Translations under genes and position numbers: made by a program
Virus record (IMG/VR): IMGVR_UViG_3300045972_000071
Coordinates: 1 to 64,000 of that record
Strand: one strand, 5' to 3'
Length of the DNA stretch: 64,000 bases
DNA from: a virus
Notes under the pieces: model-generated
What the model was told of the DNA's origin: nothing
Database searches by the model: none
The model's input: the letters and a program-made list of their open reading frames with translations, nothing else
In this document: positions 1-44,396 of the stretch, piece after piece
Position numbering within the stretch: position 1 is the stretch's first letter
Layout of the letters: each line of letters opens with the position of its first letter

Positions 1-496
1 CGCCGAGAACGATCTGTTGTTTCGGCCAGTTAAAGAATTTCCATAGTTGTATCAGACAAGCGACAAGTGACTTACCTTCTCCACGCATCCATGACAAGAT
101 AATTAGCTTGTATACGAATCGCCCGTTAACCATTCGCAATGCTTGACGCATGACGGTCTTTTGCTCTTGCCAGATATTATCGTAAGACTTGCCGGACTTC
201 GGATGTATGTCCGTTGACAAGTCTTTGATACGTGTCCAGATTGTAATATCTGAACCCTCTGGATATACGGGAATTGAAACCTTATCCTCGCACCATTTTA
301 TGAATCCCTCTGGACCATCTCTATAGTCTATCGGTTCATAAATCTCATAAGGTGCAAGTTTGTACGGGTCATATAATTCAGGATCATATACCTCTGCGGC
401 AGTGATAGTTGCAAGAGCATCATCGGGTGATTGTTCCTCTAAATCTTCTTCCTCTACAATGTCGGCTACTTTACGCCTTGCAATAATTGTTGCCAT
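1..496 (-). CDS. terL: Terminase large subunit, N-terminal part (runs off the window edge)
   Basis: My translation from the ATG at 496 reads MATIIARRK...GFIKWCEDKV...WQEQK...LIILSWMRGEGKSLVACLIQLW, a terminase-type Walker A (RGEGKS). It is missing from the ORF track because it is truncated. Confidence 0.85.
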   Translation of the reverse strand, partial: MATIIARRKVADIVEEEDLEEQSPDDALATITAAEVYDPELYDPYKLAPYEIYEPIDYRDGPEGFIKWCEDKVSIPVYPEGSDITIWTRIKDLSTDIHPKSGKSYDNIWQEQKTVMRQALRMVNGRFVYKLIILSWMRGEGKSLVACLIQLWKFFNWPKQQIVLG

Positions 497-656: not shown

Positions 657-1232
657 TTATCGCACCACGTTGCGTTTCGTCTCAGAACCTTTACTGATTT
701 CCGTATAGTGAGACGGGTCACCGTAACCACCATGCTTGTGAATACTACTATCTCCACCGGGTAGATTCGGTACGGGCACACCGGTCATTCCAATCTCTTT
801 CCATATCACGGTAATGGTTTTCAGCGTCTCACGGATTTCCTTAAAGATAGGATGGATCAAAGTCCTCCCCTTATCATCTTCATAGGCCATCGAAGCAACG
901 GATTTTGCAATGATCTTCATCTGGCAAAGCTGACCATATAAAGGTACAAGATGCATACCAATCCTAAACATGTCAGCTTCATCCAAATACCGATAGGTGC
1001 GGAATATCGTCTCCACAAAGGACTGTAGATACTGCGATTGCAGATCACACTTACCAGTCACGCGGGAAGCATTCTTGTAAACGCAGTCGTGCCCGATAGG
1101 GCACGCCGCGGGTGAGCAGTCCTGTATGCAATCCCAGGCAACAAGCTGTTTCCCCTCTCGGACTTCCCCTTTCTGCAAGGTGTTCGCTTGTATATTTAAG
1201 GTCGGTACAAAATCTACTTCATCGTCACGCAT
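657..1232 (-). CDS. Putative terminase small subunit
   Basis: 191 aa, directly upstream of terL on the same strand, RBS GGAGG. Called by position only. Confidence 0.55.
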   Translation of the reverse strand: MRDDEVDFVPTLNIQANTLQKGEVREGKQLVAWDCIQDCSPAACPIGHDCVYKNASRVTGKCDLQSQYLQSFVETIFRTYRYLDEADMFRIGMHLVPLYGQLCQMKIIAKSVASMAYEDDKGRTLIHPIFKEIRETLKTITVIWKEIGMTGVPVPNLPGGDSSIHKHGGYGDPSHYTEISKGSETKRNVVR

Positions 1233-1910
1233 AGTATACCTCCGGGAGTTATATTGTCTAGTACACTATCGCTTGTTGGGTTACGATGTCAATATATTTG
1301 AGTGGTGACGGAATTTTCGGACGATATACGCCTACGGGGTGAGGGGGGAACGCCAGGTGTAATCGGGAAATGTCAGCCATGTATGATATACACTGTTGGT
1401 AGTCATAATTCATCGAGGTCATTGACCAACTTCCAGTTTTCTGGGAAAAATTGAGAACAGGACCTGTCAGATCGCATAAAAATTTTGCAGTTGAGATAAA
1501 AGTCGGGGGGCTAAGTGCTTGAAATCACTACGTTTTTTCTAAGTCAATACATAAAAATGATTAAAAATTATTAAAATGAATGATTCTTTTGAGCATATCA
1601 GCATTATTAATGAACATTAACATGCATTTGAGCGTCAATTTTACATAAAAATCACGTCAAAAAAGCGTGATTGCAATGCATAGAAACATGCTCTAAAACG
1701 CTCAAATATCGCTTGCAAACGATTTTTAGCATATAACGCTTATCACTGTATAGAGTGAGATATTGACACGCTGAAAACGCTTTAAAATTGATGATAATAA
1801 AACGCTTGCAATATGCATTTAGTTCACGTATAAAGTAATTACATTTAACTGCTCTTTTAAAACTTAATAGCTTTTTTTGATTGCACTCGAAACGCAATAT
1901 TAAAAAAGCA

Positions 1911-2577
1911 TCACTCAAAAGATTAATAAACGCTTTCTTTCTTGCAATTAAAAAAATTCAAGTAAAGCGAGCGTGACTACTATGAAAACTACAACATTAA
2001 AGTCAATGAATTTGAGCAAAGAAGCATTCGAAGTATTGTTTTATTATGCTACTCTTTCGAATGTTTTCTATAGTTATGCTGCTGAATTGACACAAGAAGA
2101 AGTAGAAAAATGTCATTTCTCTGCTAACACGATTAATTCAAAGTTAGCTTACAGAAAGCAGTTAAACAATAAAGAAAGAAATGTTTTGATTAGAATTGAG
2201 ACTCAAGACATTTCAAACGTAGTACAAAGAAGCAGAGACATCACTAAATCAGATAAACTTAATAGAGCGTTAGCAGAATTTAGAACGCTCAATCAGCATG
2301 TTAAGTATATAAACGCTTTAAATGCAGAGTATTACGACAAAAGAACAAAAGAATATACTTTGATTAATGTAGATAACGCTTATGTGTTAAGACATTGTAA
2401 ACATAATGATTCGAAATTGCGTCACTTGTTTACAAAAGAAGTTACAGAAAAAAATGAGTTCAGATATGTAGAAAAAAACGAAGTCTCAATGTTTAAAGCA
2501 GAATAGTTTCAAGTTCTGAACATGTCAGAACTATAACTGAACATGTGAAAGAAAGCGTTTATTAATCTTTTGAGTGA
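1911..2577. repeat. Perfect 31-bp inverted repeat (1911-1941 / 2547-2577) flanking one gene, plus an outer bulged arm (1843-1859 / 2591-2609)
   Basis: tcactcaaaagattaataaacgctttctttc vs gaaagaaagcgtttattaatcttttgagtga. Confidence 0.92.
1982..2506 (+). CDS. Hypothetical pre-early protein with no Gly, Pro or Trp
   Basis: Long ORF in AT-rich DNA with a GG-free SD-like AAAGCGAGCG upstream. Alternative start at 1973. Confidence 0.75.
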   Translation: MKTTTLKSMNLSKEAFEVLFYYATLSNVFYSYAAELTQEEVEKCHFSANTINSKLAYRKQLNNKERNVLIRIETQDISNVVQRSRDITKSDKLNRALAEFRTLNQHVKYINALNAEYYDKRTKEYTLINVDNAYVLRHCKHNDSKLRHLFTKEVTEKNEFRYVEKNEVSMFKAE

Positions 2578-2699
2578 ATGCAGAAAGAAGTAAAAGAAAG
2601 CAGTTAAATTTATTCAAGAAAAGGATATGCTATGAATACCGAAACGGGCAGAACCGAAGAAACTACACGTCAAGCTAATAACATGCGGAGGACTGTATA

Positions 2700-10481: not shown

Positions 10482-11345
10482 ATGCGAGAAAGAACCTTTG
10501 AAGAAATCCAAGAGATTCGTCAAGACGTGGCTTCACGTTATGCAGATGTCACGTTTCCAGATATAGTGCTTGAACCTGTGTGGTGGGGCAGACGCCCTGA
10601 GAATCGTGTCGATGAACACTATGCTATTGTTGACCAGAACACTAACAAAGTGTTCAACATCTGCACCGAGAAGTACAAACCCGTTTATCACGAACTTATC
10701 ATCCATAACGTGGAGCAAGCCGCTGTGGAAATGCCCCAGTTCGGTGTGCCCAAGATCAAAGTTGATATGATCGGTGATGGTGCAAAGATGCGAGTGAACG
10801 TCATGTTCCCCGAGGTTGACTACATGGTCAAATCCGGTGATATATTTCACCCAACTTCTGATATCAAAACATCATACGATCTGGGATGGAAGTATACTGT
10901 TGACTTCGGTGCGTATCGTCTGGTATGTTCTAACGGACTTAAAGTGGGTGAGGTATTTGAGTCATTCAAGAAACGTCACATGACAGGACTGGATCCAAAC
11001 ATTCTGTCGGAGACACTGAATGCTGGTATGCTTCGATTCGATGAACAGACCCAGCTTTGGCAGAAGTGGGCTGAGAAAGCAATTCCTCATGCAGACTATG
11101 AGACTATCTGGGAGGAACTCCCTTTCTCAAAACCTGAGCGTGAAAAGATTGAAGCAATCACCGGCGCTGGAAACAATCTGATTCTTGCCCAGGAGATCAA
11201 GAAAGATAACCAGATCACTCTGTGGGATATGTTTAATAACACCACACAATATGTTACACATAATATTAACAGTGTGCTGAGACGTGTGGAGATAGGTCCT
11301 GAGATAACCCGTGTATTTGAAAGAGCATTTCATTCCATAAAATAA
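10482..11345 (+). CDS. DUF932/DUF945-family protein
   Basis: KYKPVYHE...SYD...GAYRLVCSNGL...KRH...TLWDMFNNTTQYVTH. Confidence 0.8.
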   Translation: MRERTFEEIQEIRQDVASRYADVTFPDIVLEPVWWGRRPENRVDEHYAIVDQNTNKVFNICTEKYKPVYHELIIHNVEQAAVEMPQFGVPKIKVDMIGDGAKMRVNVMFPEVDYMVKSGDIFHPTSDIKTSYDLGWKYTVDFGAYRLVCSNGLKVGEVFESFKKRHMTGLDPNILSETLNAGMLRFDEQTQLWQKWAEKAIPHADYETIWEELPFSKPEREKIEAITGAGNNLILAQEIKKDNQITLWDMFNNTTQYVTHNINSVLRRVEIGPEITRVFERAFHSIK

Positions 11346-11406
11346 TTATGTTGACGATTATCCTTATTATGATTATAGTAAGGATAATCTGACATAAGGA
11401 GTTATT

Positions 11407-11523
11407 ATGGAACAATGTGAATGTTTGCGGTGCGGTCATAGTTGGTTACCCAGAGTAGAAAAACCCAAAGCGTGTCCTTGTTGTATGAGTTATAAATGGA
11501 ACGTACCAAGGAGGTCAAAATGA
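11407..11523 (+). CDS. 38-aa Zn-ribbon peptide translationally coupled to an HNH gene
   Basis: MEQCECLRCGHSWLPRVEKPKACPCC...; RBS TAAGGAG; ATGA overlap with the HNH start. Confidence 0.65.
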   Translation: MEQCECLRCGHSWLPRVEKPKACPCCMSYKWNVPRRSK

Positions 11524-11963
11524 GAACAGGAAGACCTAAAACTCATGGAATGACTGGTACCCCCATACATAATACATGGTTAGCAATGATTGATCGGTGT
11601 TTCGGAAAAGAGAAGTTTAACCCTTCTTATAAAAGAAGGGGCATAATTGTGTGTGAACGCTGGTTAAAATTTGAAAACTTCTTTGAAGATATGGGAGAAC
11701 GTCCATTTAAAAATGCACAAATAGAAAGAACCAATAATGATGGTAATTATGAACCAGGTAATTGTGAGTGGACCACCCAAAAACAAAATAGCCGAAATCG
11801 TATTAGTACAATAAGGGTTGAGTATAATGATAAAATAATGGCCCTATCTGAGGTCGCTGAAATTATAGGAATGAAACCCGGTACTCTATATGATAGACAC
11901 ATTAAACGTGGATGGTCATTACATGAGGCTATACATAAACCTCTACATAGGGTATTAGAATAG
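11520..11963 (+). CDS. HNH homing endonuclease
   Basis: HG...WxxMxxRC...RGIxVCERWLKFENFFEDMG...IERxNNDGNYEPGNCEW. Confidence 0.85.
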   Translation: MRTGRPKTHGMTGTPIHNTWLAMIDRCFGKEKFNPSYKRRGIIVCERWLKFENFFEDMGERPFKNAQIERTNNDGNYEPGNCEWTTQKQNSRNRISTIRVEYNDKIMALSEVAEIIGMKPGTLYDRHIKRGWSLHEAIHKPLHRVLE

Positions 11964-12007
11964 AGATTGGACCGGAGATAACCAAAGTCTTTGAACGTCA
12001 CGACTAA
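11957..12007 (+). pseudogene. Orphaned original 3' end of the DUF932 gene
   Basis: Reads RIEIGPEITKVFERHD* versus the current end RVEIGPEITRVFERAFHSIK*. Confidence 0.85.
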
Positions 12008-23483: not shown

Positions 23484-24137
23484 ATGCCTAGAATTTATTC
23501 AATTTTTCAGAGTGTAGAAGGGGAAGTAAACGCACGTGGTATCGGTGCAATGACTGTGTTCATTCGATTTGCGGGTTGTCACGCCACATGTACATTCTGT
23601 GATACAACGTATGCAAAGGATCCTGCAAGCGGGCGTGTAATGTCAGTAAGTGAAGTTATGGAAGAGGTATCTAAGTATAACTGTCCGAACGTCACTATCA
23701 CTGGCGGTGAACCTATGGAGCAGTATGACGAACTTTGTAACCTGCTTCATGCTCTGGATGCAAATCAGTATAATGTGTCCGTAGAAACTAACGGACTGCA
23801 TTCTTTCTGGCGCAGAAATGCACCGATGATACATGCAACCTTTGTTGTGGATATCAAGAATGAAGGATTTATGGCATTATCCCGTATTGTAAACATGGGG
23901 CTTACATCTTCTGACATACTCAAAATGGTAGTGGGCAGTGAAGCTGACTTTGCTGTGGCGTGTACACGAAAGAGAGAATTGCAAGAACGTGGTGTTAAAG
24001 CCAGATTCGCATTTTCTCCAGAGTTCGGGAAAGTAGATCCAGACAGGATTCTTTCTTGGATGAAGAAATACGATCAAAATGATGCTATCCTTAATTTTCA
24101 GGCCCACAAAGTGCTTAATTTGACAGAGAATAATTAA
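23484..24137 (+). CDS. queE: 7-carboxy-7-deazaguanine synthase (radical SAM)
   Basis: IFQSVEGE, FIRFAGCHATCTFCDT, ITGGEP, VETNG, QAHK. Confidence 0.93.
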   Translation: MPRIYSIFQSVEGEVNARGIGAMTVFIRFAGCHATCTFCDTTYAKDPASGRVMSVSEVMEEVSKYNCPNVTITGGEPMEQYDELCNLLHALDANQYNVSVETNGLHSFWRRNAPMIHATFVVDIKNEGFMALSRIVNMGLTSSDILKMVVGSEADFAVACTRKRELQERGVKARFAFSPEFGKVDPDRILSWMKKYDQNDAILNFQAHKVLNLTENN

Positions 24138-24196
24138 ATCTTGCATAAACTTCCTAAGTTATAATACTGTAATAATTATAACTTAGGAGGTTACTT

Positions 24197-24817
24197 ATGG
24201 GATGCAGTGTATTGGGTTGTACAAACCATGAATTTAGTACAGGGCATGGGGACAGAAAGAAAAGAACAGGTAAATGTAGAAAACATCACTATAATTTACC
24301 TAGTAGACACTTGACCAGTGATCCAAATATATATGTGATAGATGGTCCTATATGCAGGATAACGTGCCATAAAAAAGATAACTCTATCGCAGGTTATGCC
24401 ATAATAGATACAGAAGATATGGAAAAATGTATTCCTTATAAATGGGGAATAACTTCGGATGGGTATGTAGTAAACGGTAAAAATCAAATTCGCCTGCATC
24501 ATCTAATTATGAATCATATTCCAGATAAAAATCACCCTATAGATCATAAAAATAGAATAAAATTGGATTGCAGAAAAGAGAATATGGAATTATCCACATA
24601 TTCTAAAAATAATGTGAATAGGGATTTAAAAAACAATACTTCCGGTCATAAATGTGTTTATTGGAATAAACACGCTAAATCTTGGGATGTAAGAATAACT
24701 AGGAATAAGATATGCACTCAATTAGGGTACTACAAAACTCTTGAGAAAGCCATAGAAGTTAGGGATACTTTTTATATCCAGCTTCATAAGGTATTGAACT
24801 TAACTGAGACTAACTAG
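24197..24817 (+). CDS. HNH-AP2 homing endonuclease whose tail is the original QueE C-terminus
   Basis: LHHLIM...IDHKNRIKLDCRKENM, AP2-like SGHKCVYW; ends QLHKVLNLTETN. Confidence 0.85.
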   Translation: MGCSVLGCTNHEFSTGHGDRKKRTGKCRKHHYNLPSRHLTSDPNIYVIDGPICRITCHKKDNSIAGYAIIDTEDMEKCIPYKWGITSDGYVVNGKNQIRLHHLIMNHIPDKNHPIDHKNRIKLDCRKENMELSTYSKNNVNRDLKNNTSGHKCVYWNKHAKSWDVRITRNKICTQLGYYKTLEKAIEVRDTFYIQLHKVLNLTETN

Positions 24818-28326: not shown

Positions 28327-28721
28327 TTCAGTCCTTTGATCTTGACGGTGTGATCTTCATCAATGGAAATATACCCGGACTAAGACCTACTGTACATGAT
28401 ATTATTATCACTGGAAGATCCTTCGAAGAAGCAGAAGGAACTTACTGGGCATTAAAAAATGTAGGTATAGATAATCGGGTATATTTCAATCGTCTGCTGT
28501 TCGATGAAAAGACTAGAATCACATCGGGACAGCATAAGGGACGCACTCTCCGCACTCTCATAAGCGAAGGACATAACATCGTCTGTCACTATGATGATGA
28601 TGAAATTCAGATAGCGGAGATCAGCAAATATGTGTCAATACCAATCATTCACATTAAACATGAACTCACTGAGAAGGAGAACATTCGTCATGACCAAGAA
28701 AAAGATAGCAATCCTGTATAG
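28299..28721 (+). CDS. HAD-superfamily phosphatase
   Basis: FDLDGV, ITGR, K, HYDDD; GTG start after AAGGAG. Confidence 0.82.
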   Translation: MYDKSGKKVIQSFDLDGVIFINGNIPGLRPTVHDIIITGRSFEEAEGTYWALKNVGIDNRVYFNRLLFDEKTRITSGQHKGRTLRTLISEGHNIVCHYDDDEIQIAEISKYVSIPIIHIKHELTEKENIRHDQEKDSNPV

Positions 28722-29526
28722 CGGGGGATTAGACAGCTTCATCATGTACAATATGGCAAAGTTTTATCATCCGGGCGATGAAATTATTGCTGTATACTTC
28801 GATCACGGCGCTTCCTACTGTAAGCGGGAGATAGAAAAACTCCCCGACTTTGTGCAAGTACGCAAGCTCGACTGGCTCGATGAAACCCACACTACTGTTA
28901 CACAACCAGGTAGACGTGAAGGTGCAATTATGATACCGGGACGTAATCTGGTGTTTGCTACCGCACTCGTTTGTCAAGAACTACCTGACGAACTTTGGAT
29001 TGGTGCTCTACACGGTGAGACACATGAGAAGGGTACGGACAAGAACTACACGTTCCTTGCTAAGATGAATGAAACCCTTAATTATGTTGTCGGTCCTTTC
29101 CGAAACAAGGTTCCTATGTACTGTAAGTTCCCCCTTGCTGATTTGAAGTTGGATAAACTCGATTCAGTTAAGTGGGCACTCACTCATGGAATTAGTCGTG
29201 AACAACTGATGCGTACTCGCTCCTGTCATGATGGTAGTACAGATAAGTGTGGTGCTTGTATTCAGTGTGTTAAACGATGGGCTGTGTTCGGGGCATGTGG
29301 ATTCACCGAACTGTATGATACACATCCACTTGATTCGGAATTCGGTAAGAAATTCGTATCTGACCTGGTCAAGTGTGAACTTGGGGAAGATGATTACTAC
29401 GGAGAAGAGACAAGAGCGGAGATAATGCCACATCTACATTTCATGGCTAACACATTCCCTTCTCTCTTCGAGGAAGAAACACTTGCTGATATCCGTAGAC
29501 TACAAAATCTGAGTAGGGATTACTAA
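28690..29526 (+). CDS. queC: QueC-like ATP-dependent enzyme (divergent 7-cyano-7-deazaguanine synthase family)
   Basis: YSGGLDS PP-loop, IPGRN, TRSC...CGACIQC; the usual YPDC motif reads GTDK. Confidence 0.85.
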   Translation: MTKKKIAILYSGGLDSFIMYNMAKFYHPGDEIIAVYFDHGASYCKREIEKLPDFVQVRKLDWLDETHTTVTQPGRREGAIMIPGRNLVFATALVCQELPDELWIGALHGETHEKGTDKNYTFLAKMNETLNYVVGPFRNKVPMYCKFPLADLKLDKLDSVKWALTHGISREQLMRTRSCHDGSTDKCGACIQCVKRWAVFGACGFTELYDTHPLDSEFGKKFVSDLVKCELGEDDYYGEETRAEIMPHLHFMANTFPSLFEEETLADIRRLQNLSRDY

Positions 29527-29573
29527 TGGATAGTTCAATCTTTCTCGACTCTTTATTATTCTTGACTTTATAG
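29526..29573 (+). pseudogene. Orphaned original 5' end of the TGT/DpdA-like gene
   Basis: ATG GAT AGT TCA ATC TTT CTC GAC TCT = MDSSIFLDS, coupled to the queC stop codon (TAATG). Confidence 0.88.
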
Positions 29574-29620
29574 AATGCATGATATAATATCCTTCTAACA
29601 TAAATAATTAGGAGGATATT

Positions 29621-30403
29621 ATGTCAGAATGTATTTGGGAAGGTTGCACAGAGGATGGTAATAATAAAGGATACTGTAAAAAACATTATGATAAATGGTA
29701 TTACAAATTGTGTAGAGAGAAAGCCGGACTAGCCCAATATACAAATCAAAATCCCATAAGAAAACGGACAAAAATAACCGGTACATGCAATGTGGAGGGA
29801 TGTGACTCACAAATTCACTGTAAGGGTGTTTGCTACAGGCATTATCTACATCTACGAAATCATGGAGAAATTAGGGAGAGAACTAGAATAACTCCTAATG
29901 ATTTTATCATTGACGGCGACACCTGTAAAATAGGTTGTTATAACATCTACTGTGATCTAGTAGGTTATGCTTTAATTGATGCCGAAGATGTAGATAGATG
30001 CAAACCACATAAATGGTATTTTGAAGTAGATGGTTATGTGAGTAGTACAACAGCAGGAAGTTTGCACCATTTTATATTAGGCACTAAACCTAGAAGTGGT
30101 GTATTTCCAGATCATAAAAACAGAGTATGCCATGATAATAGGAAAGATAATTTAAGAATTGCAACCACATCACAAAATGCCTGTAATTCTAAAATAAACT
30201 CCCGTAATAAAACAGGATATAAGGGTGTTTACTTTAACGGAAAAGAGTTTGTAGTTTATATATGTTCAAACGGTAAAAACAATCTTGTGGGTAAGTACAA
30301 TACGAAGGAGGAAGCGGCTATGATTTACAACCAGAAAGCCAAAGAGCTTCACGGAGAGTTTGCATTTCAAAATACTCTCAAAGAGAGTGTGGTCATTGGA
30401 TAG
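29621..30403 (+). CDS. HNH-AP2 homing endonuclease
   Basis: C/H Zn motifs, LHHFIL...DHKNRVCHDNRKDNLR, TGYKGV...EEAA..YN..AKELHGEFA. Confidence 0.88.
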   Translation: MSECIWEGCTEDGNNKGYCKKHYDKWYYKLCREKAGLAQYTNQNPIRKRTKITGTCNVEGCDSQIHCKGVCYRHYLHLRNHGEIRERTRITPNDFIIDGDTCKIGCYNIYCDLVGYALIDAEDVDRCKPHKWYFEVDGYVSSTTAGSLHHFILGTKPRSGVFPDHKNRVCHDNRKDNLRIATTSQNACNSKINSRNKTGYKGVYFNGKEFVVYICSNGKNNLVGKYNTKEEAAMIYNQKAKELHGEFAFQNTLKESVVIG

Positions 30404-31262
30404 TTCAATATTCCTCGATAGTGGTGCTTTCTCCGCAATGACATCTGGACAGACCCTAGATGTGTATGCCTACATTGATTATGTCAATGAGCATAAGGAG
30501 TTCTTTGATCTGTATGCTAACCTTGACGTAATAGGTTCTGCTGAAGGTACATGGAAGAATCAAAGGATAATGGAGAAAGCGGGACTTAATCCATTACCTG
30601 TCTATCACATCAATGAAGATCCTAAGTTTCTTGCGATGGCAATGGAGTATGATTACTTTGCTGTTGGGGGAATGGCAAGATCGAGTTCCGCTTCATTGCA
30701 GTTCCAAGTAGATGAAATATTCTCTATCATCTGCCCGAAGAGCAACGACTATTTTCCTACTCATAAAATACATGGGTTCGGAACTACTAAACCAAGTATC
30801 ATGGTCAGCTACCCCTGGTACTCTGTTGACTCTTCTTCATGGGTTAAATATGGTCTGTACGGTATTGTGCTGATACCCCGATTCTTTCACGGTAAGCCTA
30901 CATACAATAAGCCACCTATGACTGTTGTTATGTCGAACAGATCAAAAGCAATCGGAGATCAACTCCACTTTGCAAACATTTCAGCAATGGAAAAGGAAGC
31001 TATCCTTAACTACTTTGCTGAGAAAGGTATCTCTATAGGAGAATCTTACATCGTCAATGTTGAAGCAGGGCACGAACTGCTGGACAATGAAGTCTGGATA
31101 AACAAAGAGAAGACGAAAGTGGAACAGATTTGTGAGTACGGTCTGATAAATAATCATGTAGCCCGTGACCATGCAAACTTGCTTTACTTTCTTGACCTTG
31201 AGAAGTTTCAGCAGAAGTGGCCATGGCAGTGGAAAAAGAAATCAGGGAGATTAGATATATGA
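30396..31262 (+). CDS. dpdA: TGT-fold DNA 7-deazaguanine transglycosylase (DpdA-like)
   Basis: FLDSGAF, LDVIG, PVYH, AVGG, KIHGFG, SVDSSSW; lies in the que cluster; TTG start inferred. Confidence 0.8.
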   Translation: MDSSIFLDSGAFSAMTSGQTLDVYAYIDYVNEHKEFFDLYANLDVIGSAEGTWKNQRIMEKAGLNPLPVYHINEDPKFLAMAMEYDYFAVGGMARSSSASLQFQVDEIFSIICPKSNDYFPTHKIHGFGTTKPSIMVSYPWYSVDSSSWVKYGLYGIVLIPRFFHGKPTYNKPPMTVVMSNRSKAIGDQLHFANISAMEKEAILNYFAEKGISIGESYIVNVEAGHELLDNEVWINKEKTKVEQICEYGLINNHVARDHANLLYFLDLEKFQQKWPWQWKKKSGRLDI

Positions 31263-31438
31263 GAATTTACTTAGCAGGGAACTTCCCGCAGTTATCGAAA
31301 AAAGAATCTGAAATGGTCATGGTGGAGAACATAAAGAAAGCGGACTCTGCTTATAACCGACTCATTACTTATTTCTTTCCTAAGTATTGCACCACTGTTA
31401 TCTCAATCAAAAAGGATATGATTGAGGGTAAAATTTAA
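31259..31438 (+). CDS. 59-aa protein, possibly the detached N-terminal segment of the TGT barrel
   Basis: MRIYLAG...NRLITYF; ATGA-coupled to the dpdA-like gene. Confidence 0.55.
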   Translation: MRIYLAGNFPQLSKKESEMVMVENIKKADSAYNRLITYFFPKYCTTVISIKKDMIEGKI

Positions 31439-43760: not shown

Positions 43761-44396
43761 ATGAGAGGTAAGAAAGTATGTAAAATTGAAGGATGTGGTG
43801 CTTACTGTTTTGGTAATGGTCTGTGTGGCAAGCATTATAGACAAATGCGGGATTACGGTAAAATATTTGCACGAACTATAAAAGACCCAAATGATTTTAT
43901 AATAGATGGTTCTATATGCAGAATAGGATGTTATGATTTGAAACATAATTTAAAAGGATATATAATAATAGATGCAGAGGACAGTGAAAAATGTAAACCG
44001 TTCAAATGGAATATGGGAACCGGTGGTCCTGTAGCTAAAGGAATAGTTTTGACTAATTTGATAATGAATAATGACCCAACTACAAAATTGGTAGTGGATC
44101 ACAAAGATAGGAATACTTGGGATAATAGGAAAGACAACCTCAGAATATGTACAGTTAAGGAAAACGCCAGAAATAGGGTTCATCCTAAAAATAAATCAGG
44201 TTACCGTGGAGTATCTTGGAGTAATAAAGAAAATAAATGGATTGCCACGATTCAACACGATAGTAAGCAAATGAGATTAGGATGTTTTACCGATATAATC
44301 GAAGCGGCAAAAATGTATAATATGATGGCAAAGGAGCTACACGGTGAGTTTGCGGTTCTGAATAAAATTCCACTTATTAGGAGAAGAAATGGTTGA
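43761..44396 (+). CDS. HNH-AP2 homing endonuclease
   Basis: VDHKDRNTWDNRKDNLR, SGYRGV, LGCF..IIEAAKMYN..AKELHGEFA. Confidence 0.88.
   Translation: MRGKKVCKIEGCGAYCFGNGLCGKHYRQMRDYGKIFARTIKDPNDFIIDGSICRIGCYDLKHNLKGYIIIDAEDSEKCKPFKWNMGTGGPVAKGIVLTNLIMNNDPTTKLVVDHKDRNTWDNRKDNLRICTVKENARNRVHPKNKSGYRGVSWSNKENKWIATIQHDSKQMRLGCFTDIIEAAKMYNMMAKELHGEFAVLNKIPLIRRRNG

Follow-up and report, generated by a model that had tools for sequence, protein, structure and literature searches.

The DNA considered here, hereafter the window, is the first 64 kb (64,000 nucleotides) of the 87.6-kb IMG/VR virus record IMGVR_UViG_3300045972_000071. Within the first codons of a dpdA-like gene, predicted to encode the DNA 7-deazaguanine transglycosylase of this virus, it carries what is very probably, judged from its sequence, a free-standing HNH-AP2 homing endonuclease gene that has brought with it a substitute start for dpdA and displaced the native one. 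Replacement of a gene end by an endonuclease element has already been described in fungal mitochondria and at yeast FBA1, in each case at the 3' end; here the gene is a phage gene and the end is the 5' end. A literature search, within the passages that it covered, found no description of this layout in phages or at the 5' end of a gene. The arrangement suggests that neither an intron nor an intein is needed for a selfish nuclease to lodge a single codon away from a catalytic aspartate while the gene is preserved, and it widens the places in which to look for homing endonucleases in phage genomes. What adds interest is that the break lies a single codon away from that of a predicted catalytic residue in a DNA-hypermodification gene, and that queE, which belongs to the same pathway, provides a sister case.

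All features of the junction lie on the plus strand. A queC-like gene (28630..29526; Pfam QueC, E 3.9e-12; phrog_1550) closes with TAA at 29524-29526, and this stop overlaps an ATG at 29526 that opens the old dpdA start, ATG GAT AGT TCA ATC TTT CTC GAC TCT (MDSSIFLDS, 29526-29552). Six unrelated codons belonging to the cassette (TTA TTA TTC TTG ACT TTA) and then TAG at 29571-29573 follow, leaving an orphan open reading frame (ORF) of 15 codons (29526..29573), recognised as the displaced start from its sequence, its repeat match and its position relative to the queC stop, which is as in the insert-free relative L018 described below. The HNH-AP2 gene, of 260 aa, occupies 29621..30403 behind a ribosome-binding site, AGGAGG, at 29610..29615. 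At 30396, eight bases before the HNH ORF ends, a TTG opens TTG GAT AGT TCA ATA TTC CTC GAT AGT GGT GCT TTC; the HNH stop (TAG, 30401-30403) lies inside this substitute start (30396..30422), and the frame is open from the TTG to 31262, so that the dpdA-like gene (30396..31262, 288 codons) is intact. The same eight-base overlap recurs in the occupied relative L004 and at the HNH paralog that begins at 43761. The interval 29553..30422 measures 870 bases, of which 87 (68 + 19) lie outside the HNH ORF; its flanks are repeats, so the insert may equally be drawn as 29526..30395. An earlier note on this DNA had pointed out the split dpdA start, the 870-bp insert and the second copy of the same peptide, and direct reading of the sequence, the ORF list and a repeat search bear it out on all three. 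It was right as well that the copy behind the HNH gene restores full-length DpdA, the 288-codon frame being open, and that the old start is still coupled to queC, as seen in the TAA/ATG overlap at 29526 and backed by L018. The break that it placed between the S and the G of the DSG motif is the point at which the similarity of the left copy ends, and not a mapped cut.

The repeat search aligned 29527-29548 with 30397-30418, identical at 20 of 22 positions and spaced 870 bases apart. Over the full nine codons 21 of 27 bases agree, and all five codons that differ are synonymous when TTG is read as initiator methionine, one of them being a serine switch between TCT and AGT; of the six base differences, three fall within the two codons beside the break. 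When the 996 upstream bases were shuffled 2000 times by mononucleotide, the best match reached 21 in none of the shuffles, and the largest value was 19. The sequence supports reading the HNH unit as an insertion into the 5' end of dpdA, beside the catalytic motif, and so do the relatives L018 and L004. Because every difference is synonymous, the TCT/AGT switch included, the two copies would have diverged inside working genes and not as a drifting dead remnant. Where the earlier note saw N-terminal repair, with the start recoded by the element, the copy does restore the start, but a donor allele fits the five synonymous codon differences better, and the apparent recoding is most simply taken as the spelling of that allele and not as repair by design.

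The likeliest course of events is that the mobile unit comprises the endonuclease gene and the dpdA start directly behind it, and that its entry pushed the first nine codons of the resident gene upstream, where they would now persist as the dead 15-codon ORF coupled to queC. The copy that travelled with the endonuclease would now open the working dpdA, and the synonymous differences between the copies would be the ordinary divergence of donor and recipient alleles. Cleavage of an empty dpdA by the enzyme would take place at its conserved LDSGA codons, and repair would proceed from an occupied genome, with the upstream genes plus the remnant as one arm and the body of dpdA as the other; by analogy, the element may spread by the route proposed for the yeast WHO elements, mirrored to the 5' end. 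The re-spelled codons probably make the occupied allele uncuttable, and the differences in the two codons adjoining the break are the likeliest cause of such resistance of the allele to its own enzyme. If the recoded codons do protect the allele, the dpdA and queE loci offer ready pairs of sensitive and resistant targets for mapping HNH-AP2 specificity. Since it is the 5' end that is replaced, the element must also supply a start codon and translation initiation. The HNH stop overlaps the TTG, and DpdA translation is therefore probably coupled to that of the endonuclease, where it would once have been coupled to queC. The exchange of a coupled ATG for a weak TTG proposed in the earlier note agrees with the letters and with the weak Shine-Dalgarno (SD) pairing; given the overlap with the HNH stop, coupling would have been re-targeted and not lost. 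Pairing energies, calculated with a generic anti-SD sequence, are -5.3 kcal/mol for the DpdA TTG, -5.7 for the remnant, -10.2 for the HNH gene and -7.3 for the ATG start of L004.

Both empty and occupied sites occur among relatives. The 1383-base metagenome contig L018, with a DpdA 73% identical to that of the window, has no HNH gene; its queC is of the same long type and ends in a TGA that overlaps the dpdA ATG as ATGA (MKTSLFLDSGAFSAMTSG...). By its sequence L018 is an empty site, with the stop/start coupling that the remnant in the window still holds. The 93-kb viral contig L004, with a DpdA 69% identical, is occupied. Directly before its dpdA stands an HNH gene of 183 aa, 47% identical to the HNH protein of the window over 174 residues; the remnant, MNHSIFLDSGAYS, runs into three other codons and a stop, and the working start is MNKSIFLDSGAYSSWTSG. 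Over the 13-codon remnant of L004 the two copies agree at 26 of 39 bases and share 12 of 13 residues, a match reached in none of 2000 shuffles; nine codons differ, eight of them silently, and one residue differs. The left junction falls after codon 13 in L004 as against codon 9 in the window, the gene upstream of the cassette is a 134-aa gene in L004 as against queC, and L004 is without the promoter-like site and the N-terminal Cys-rich repeats of the cassette in the window. The right junction is alike in both: counted from the first base of the dpdA start, which in L004 is an ATG behind AGGAG, the HNH stop begins five bases on. An HNH gene at the dpdA site is present, then, in the window and L004 and absent from L018, and among 43 loci HNH matches were confined to the window loci and L004/L007. 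The arrangement is rare: one of 80 IMG/VR dpdA loci is occupied. Seventy-five of these loci have a single DSG motif, four have two, and one (L086) has DCG in its place; the second motif is a remnant only in the L004 contig, belongs to a second full paralog in L079, and is a chance word in L072 and L085.

Other DpdA relatives (P0003-P0006) are 68-70% identical. Sliding identity over 40 residues against seven relatives left the nearest relative unchanged near the 5' end of dpdA, at a divergence too great to inform, and L018, whose queC stop/start overlap the remnant keeps, is at 73% too distant for a comparison over 27 bases. A megablast search of 28600-31300 against cultured phages returned no near-identical DNA. 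Two sequencing runs gave four short contig pieces, one of which, of 151 bases (31029-31179, inside dpdA), matched well; the pieces contained no joints, and the junctions lay outside their coverage.

The identity of the dpdA product is indicated by several kinds of evidence. It matches phrog_887, 'queuine tRNA-ribosyltransferase', with E 3.4e-42, and a tblastn search matched 221 phage records, the best at 33-39% identity, annotated as queuine tRNA-ribosyltransferase or as '7-deazaguanosine inserting enzyme'; no Pfam model matches the product, and a sequence profile search of the PDB gave chance-level matches (E 0.68 and above). An AlphaFold (AF2) model built on an alignment of 19 distinct full-length homologs from the fetched loci has a pLDDT of 88.2, and in VIA-align all 50 rows shown are TGT or DpdA structures, with Z between 12.1 and 12.6. 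Against Salmonella DpdA (7ui4) the Z is 12.3, with a root-mean-square deviation of 3.5 over 214 aligned residues, residues 1..274 of the model lying on 88..409 of the chain. Residue 1 of the model aligns with residue 88 of 7ui4, so D8 lines up, by offset, with Asp95, and would be its counterpart; the break would accordingly fall one codon past that of the catalytic Asp. In DpdA, Asp95 is the general acid/base, and the D95A change abolishes guanine exchange (PMC10164549). D8, S9, G10, D44 and D145 are invariant across the 19 homologs, in which the (L/A)DSG motif places its Asp between residues 6 and 13, and DpdA of the window keeps all 36 columns that are invariant across these sequences; from their order, D44 and D145 are inferred to be the counterparts of Asp130 and Asp256. 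The rest of the 7-deazaguanine pathway around dpdA is intact.

In the HNH protein, two Cys/His-rich repeats at the N-terminus precede an HNH_3 core, and the C-terminal domain is AP2-like. The core matches PF13392 (HNH_3) at 25.7 bits, with a cut-off of 24.8 (E 9e-6), and the protein matches phrog_99, 'HNH endonuclease', at E 7.9e-31; the C-terminus matches AP2 (PF00847) at E 1.2e-5 and 26.0 bits, under the 33.3 cut-off, and there is a weak sequence match in the PDB to an AP2-domain protein (E 0.5). D164, H165, K166, N177 and N186 are invariant in an alignment of four HNH paralogs and relatives, and we take these residues to have catalytic roles. Two paralogs are encoded elsewhere in the genome, one at 43761..44396 (44% identity), the other at 24197..24817 (37%). 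The HNH-AP2 family of homing endonucleases is a recognised one, with members among protists, cyanobacteria and phages (PMC10448857). The left end of the cassette holds a promoter-like site (29562..29590), with TTGACT, 17 bases and TAATAT, that matches the consensus at 9 of 12 positions in a consensus scan and includes TGATATAAT at 29580-29588; by eye, -35/-10 pairs of a similar kind precede the paralogous cassettes. By consensus, the site at 29562-29590 is a candidate for the promoter that the earlier note saw added by the element, and the extended -10 word TGNTATAAT is not enriched in the window (four sites, 3.5 expected). No terminator-like site was found on the plus strand between 28000 and 32000, and read-through from the queC operon into the dpdA region is therefore likely, besides any promoter in the cassette.

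A sister case lies at the tail of queE (24096..24817, plus strand), where the repeat match and the paralog alignment point to a cassette with the paralogous HNH gene 24197..24817. Here queE ends in FQAHKVLNLTENN and a stop, and the last 13 codons of the HNH gene are a re-spelled version of that tail, IQLHKVLNLTETN, again with a stop. The copies agree at 26 of 42 bases and at 11 of 14 positions (13 residues and the stop), a match reached in 3 of 2000 shuffles; 12 of 14 codons, the two stops counted, are spelled differently, 9 of these 12 silently, and three residues differ. The HNH protein leaves the paralog pattern exactly at ...ELH|GEFA..., and the join to the old QueE tail would therefore be at the shared Leu-His, which suggests a fusion of HNH and queE at a short shared word. 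In a relative, G002 (L056, minus strand), a promoter-like site comes after queE and then an HNH gene with a normal end, EFGEFACLNFSQ and a stop, and no remnant; from its sequence, this queE-HNH pair looks like a donor arrangement.

Several observations weigh against a homing element with a substitute start, or at least against parts of that account. No near-identical genome free of the insert was found, and which copy is native is judged from position only. A tree of seven HNH proteins has four inner branches, none supported, and one old insertion shared by the window and L004 is therefore not separable from two. The assignment of D8 to Asp95 presumes that the first eight aligned residues are gapless, and sites of the 9/12 quality of the promoter-like site number 17 in the region, with 11.5 expected. 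A TTG start with SD pairing of -5.3 kcal/mol allows for poor expression of DpdA, and a public entry, P0001, is of 274 aa and starts at Met15 (30438 of the window), without D8, S9 and G10. The last two observations are also what favours a different view, namely that dpdA is effectively dead, the TTG copy being unused and yielding at best a protein truncated to Met15 that is devoid of the catalytic Asp. We consider this decidedly unlikely, as the 288-codon frame has no interruption and retains all 36 invariant columns, D8, S9 and G10 among them; the structural model is confident (pLDDT 88.2), the overlap with the HNH gene has the same geometry as in L004, where the start is an ATG behind AGGAG, and the 7-deazaguanine pathway around the gene is intact. 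The Met15 start of P0001 is read as an annotation artefact, and the TTG start, lying behind the HNH gene, is apparently overlooked by gene-calling programs. Calls of this type, lacking the catalytic residue, together with an orphan ORF labelled 'hypothetical', could lead surveys of phage DNA-modification genes to misjudge such loci.

It may also be asked whether any foreign allele is involved at all, since the nine codons could have been duplicated in place when the HNH gene landed, by target-site duplication or a slip of repair, and have diverged afterwards. The two peptides are identical, so that neither copy has a foreign residue, and a donor genome is not known; an unused remnant, however, should gain mostly non-synonymous changes, and here all five differing codons are synonymous. 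The TCT/AGT serine switch, moreover, needs two or more steps, and the mostly silent pattern recurs in L004 (eight of nine) and at queE (nine of twelve), all of which makes duplication in place quite improbable. A self-splicing intron or an intein containing the endonuclease ORF, with the first copy joined to GAFS..., is least credible and scarcely to be entertained, although removal of 29553..30422 leaves an intact reading frame and group I introns of phages are known to house HNH genes (PMC3428280). Under such an arrangement the gene would have no need of its second nine-codon copy. With E values up to 1 allowed, Rfam gave no match to a group I intron or any other RNA family in 29000-31000, both strands included, and just 87 bases lie outside the HNH ORF; an intein is countered by the HNH ORF having its own start, ribosome-binding site and stop in a frame different from that of dpdA.

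Homing endonucleases that are free-standing and home without introns are represented in phages by the Seg and Mob families of T4, the genes of which reportedly lie between others or divide one into two functional parts; mobE reportedly splits nrdA of phage Aeh1 in this latter way. The element described here resembles these in that its endonuclease gene stands free, has expression signals of its own and is located by or inside a conserved phage gene, and in varying in its presence among relatives. A duplicated, re-spelled gene end was not seen described for the T4 Seg and Mob genes or for mobE. In this respect closer parallels are the fungal mORF gene hybrids, involving atp6 of Allomyces macrogynus and atp6, atp9, cox2 and nad3 of Glomus (PMC3630166), in which, too, a coding region contains an endonuclease ORF and neither an intron nor an intein is involved, an in-frame substitute end is provided, and the native end is displaced past the endonuclease. 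The copies in those hybrids likewise differ mostly at synonymous sites, which the authors of that study read as foreign origin. The hybrids concern 3' ends, LAGLIDADG or GIY-YIG enzymes and organelles, whereas the present case concerns a 5' end, an HNH-AP2 enzyme and a phage. The yeast WHO elements at FBA1 (Coughlan et al., 2020, PMC7282813) are similar in that the unit is an endonuclease gene with an adjoining gene end that confers resistance; as set out in that article, with each homing event the gene end is exchanged, the former end moves outward as a fragment that serves as a homology arm, and splicing is not required. WHO proteins are intein-like fusions of LAGLIDADG and zinc-finger domains acting in the eukaryotic nucleus, and the part of the gene replaced is a long 3' portion (from base 668 of FBA1), in contrast to the 27 bases at the 5' end here. 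Cleavage and allele resistance, predicted for the phage element, were demonstrated for WHO6. The 'N-terminal duplications' reported in Tremella (PMC7315562) concern the start of the following exon within genes and not the start codon of a gene.

In a broader interpretation, phage homing endonucleases would have, next to introns and inteins, a third general and so far undescribed means of residing within catalytic-motif codons, namely gene-start replacement, and DpdA initiation and the level of hypermodification would be tied to a selfish gene. In its bolder form, this HNH family would target motif codons of 7-deazaguanine genes (the QxHK tail of queE, the DSG of dpdA), disabling the DNA protection of a co-infecting rival while copying itself in. 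We regard the broader interpretation as a whole as doubtful; were it true, the element could be lost only by exact excision.

A conserved ORF of 59-65 aa lies directly 3' of dpdA in the window (31259-31438), in L004 (4878-5060) and in L005 (1333-1515), with the motif ..L(A/S)GNFPxLS....(Y/F)(H/N)RL(I/L/V)T(Y/F).., and a further copy is found at 2657-2854 of L045. The gene in the window (31259..31438) starts in an ATGA overlap and has no Pfam or PHROG match. In L045 (G002), an HNH gene (2016..2660) precedes the homolog of this small gene (E 3e-8), and a possible 7-codon remnant (1922-1945, matching 2657-2680) with a similar SD sequence overlaps the stop of the upstream gene. This candidate is weaker, at 21 of 31 bases with the SD sequence included (6 of 2000 shuffles) and 15 of 21 without it (62 of 2000).

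A few other loci may be mentioned for their variants of the same genes. The L004 contig has a further HNH gene at 776-1407 that is split into ORFs 776..1048 and 1072..1407 in different frames and is probably decaying. L079 (1145 and 3335) and L028 (830-1690 and 2134-2604), which are viral or metagenome contigs, each have two nearby dpdA-like genes, probably paralogs. The DpdA relative of L086 (2839-3828) has WLDCGSPS, as against FLDSGA(Y/F)S elsewhere, with Cys in place of the invariant Ser beside the catalytic Asp.

At the third HNH paralog of the window, 43761..44396, TTGACA, 17 bases and TATCAT precede the gene, together with AGGAGG, and the HNH stop lies five bases past the start of the next gene. 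No duplicated gene end was detected there, the best match being 19 of 36 bases, equalled in 859 of 2000 shuffles, and neither G001 nor G002 has a match to the gene that follows. At 11283-12007 a cassette with a different type of nuclease follows a DUF932 gene, at its 3' end; the gene ends in EIGPEITRVFERAFHSIK and a stop, and behind the cassette stands the re-spelled version, EIGPEITKVFERHD, likewise closed by a stop.

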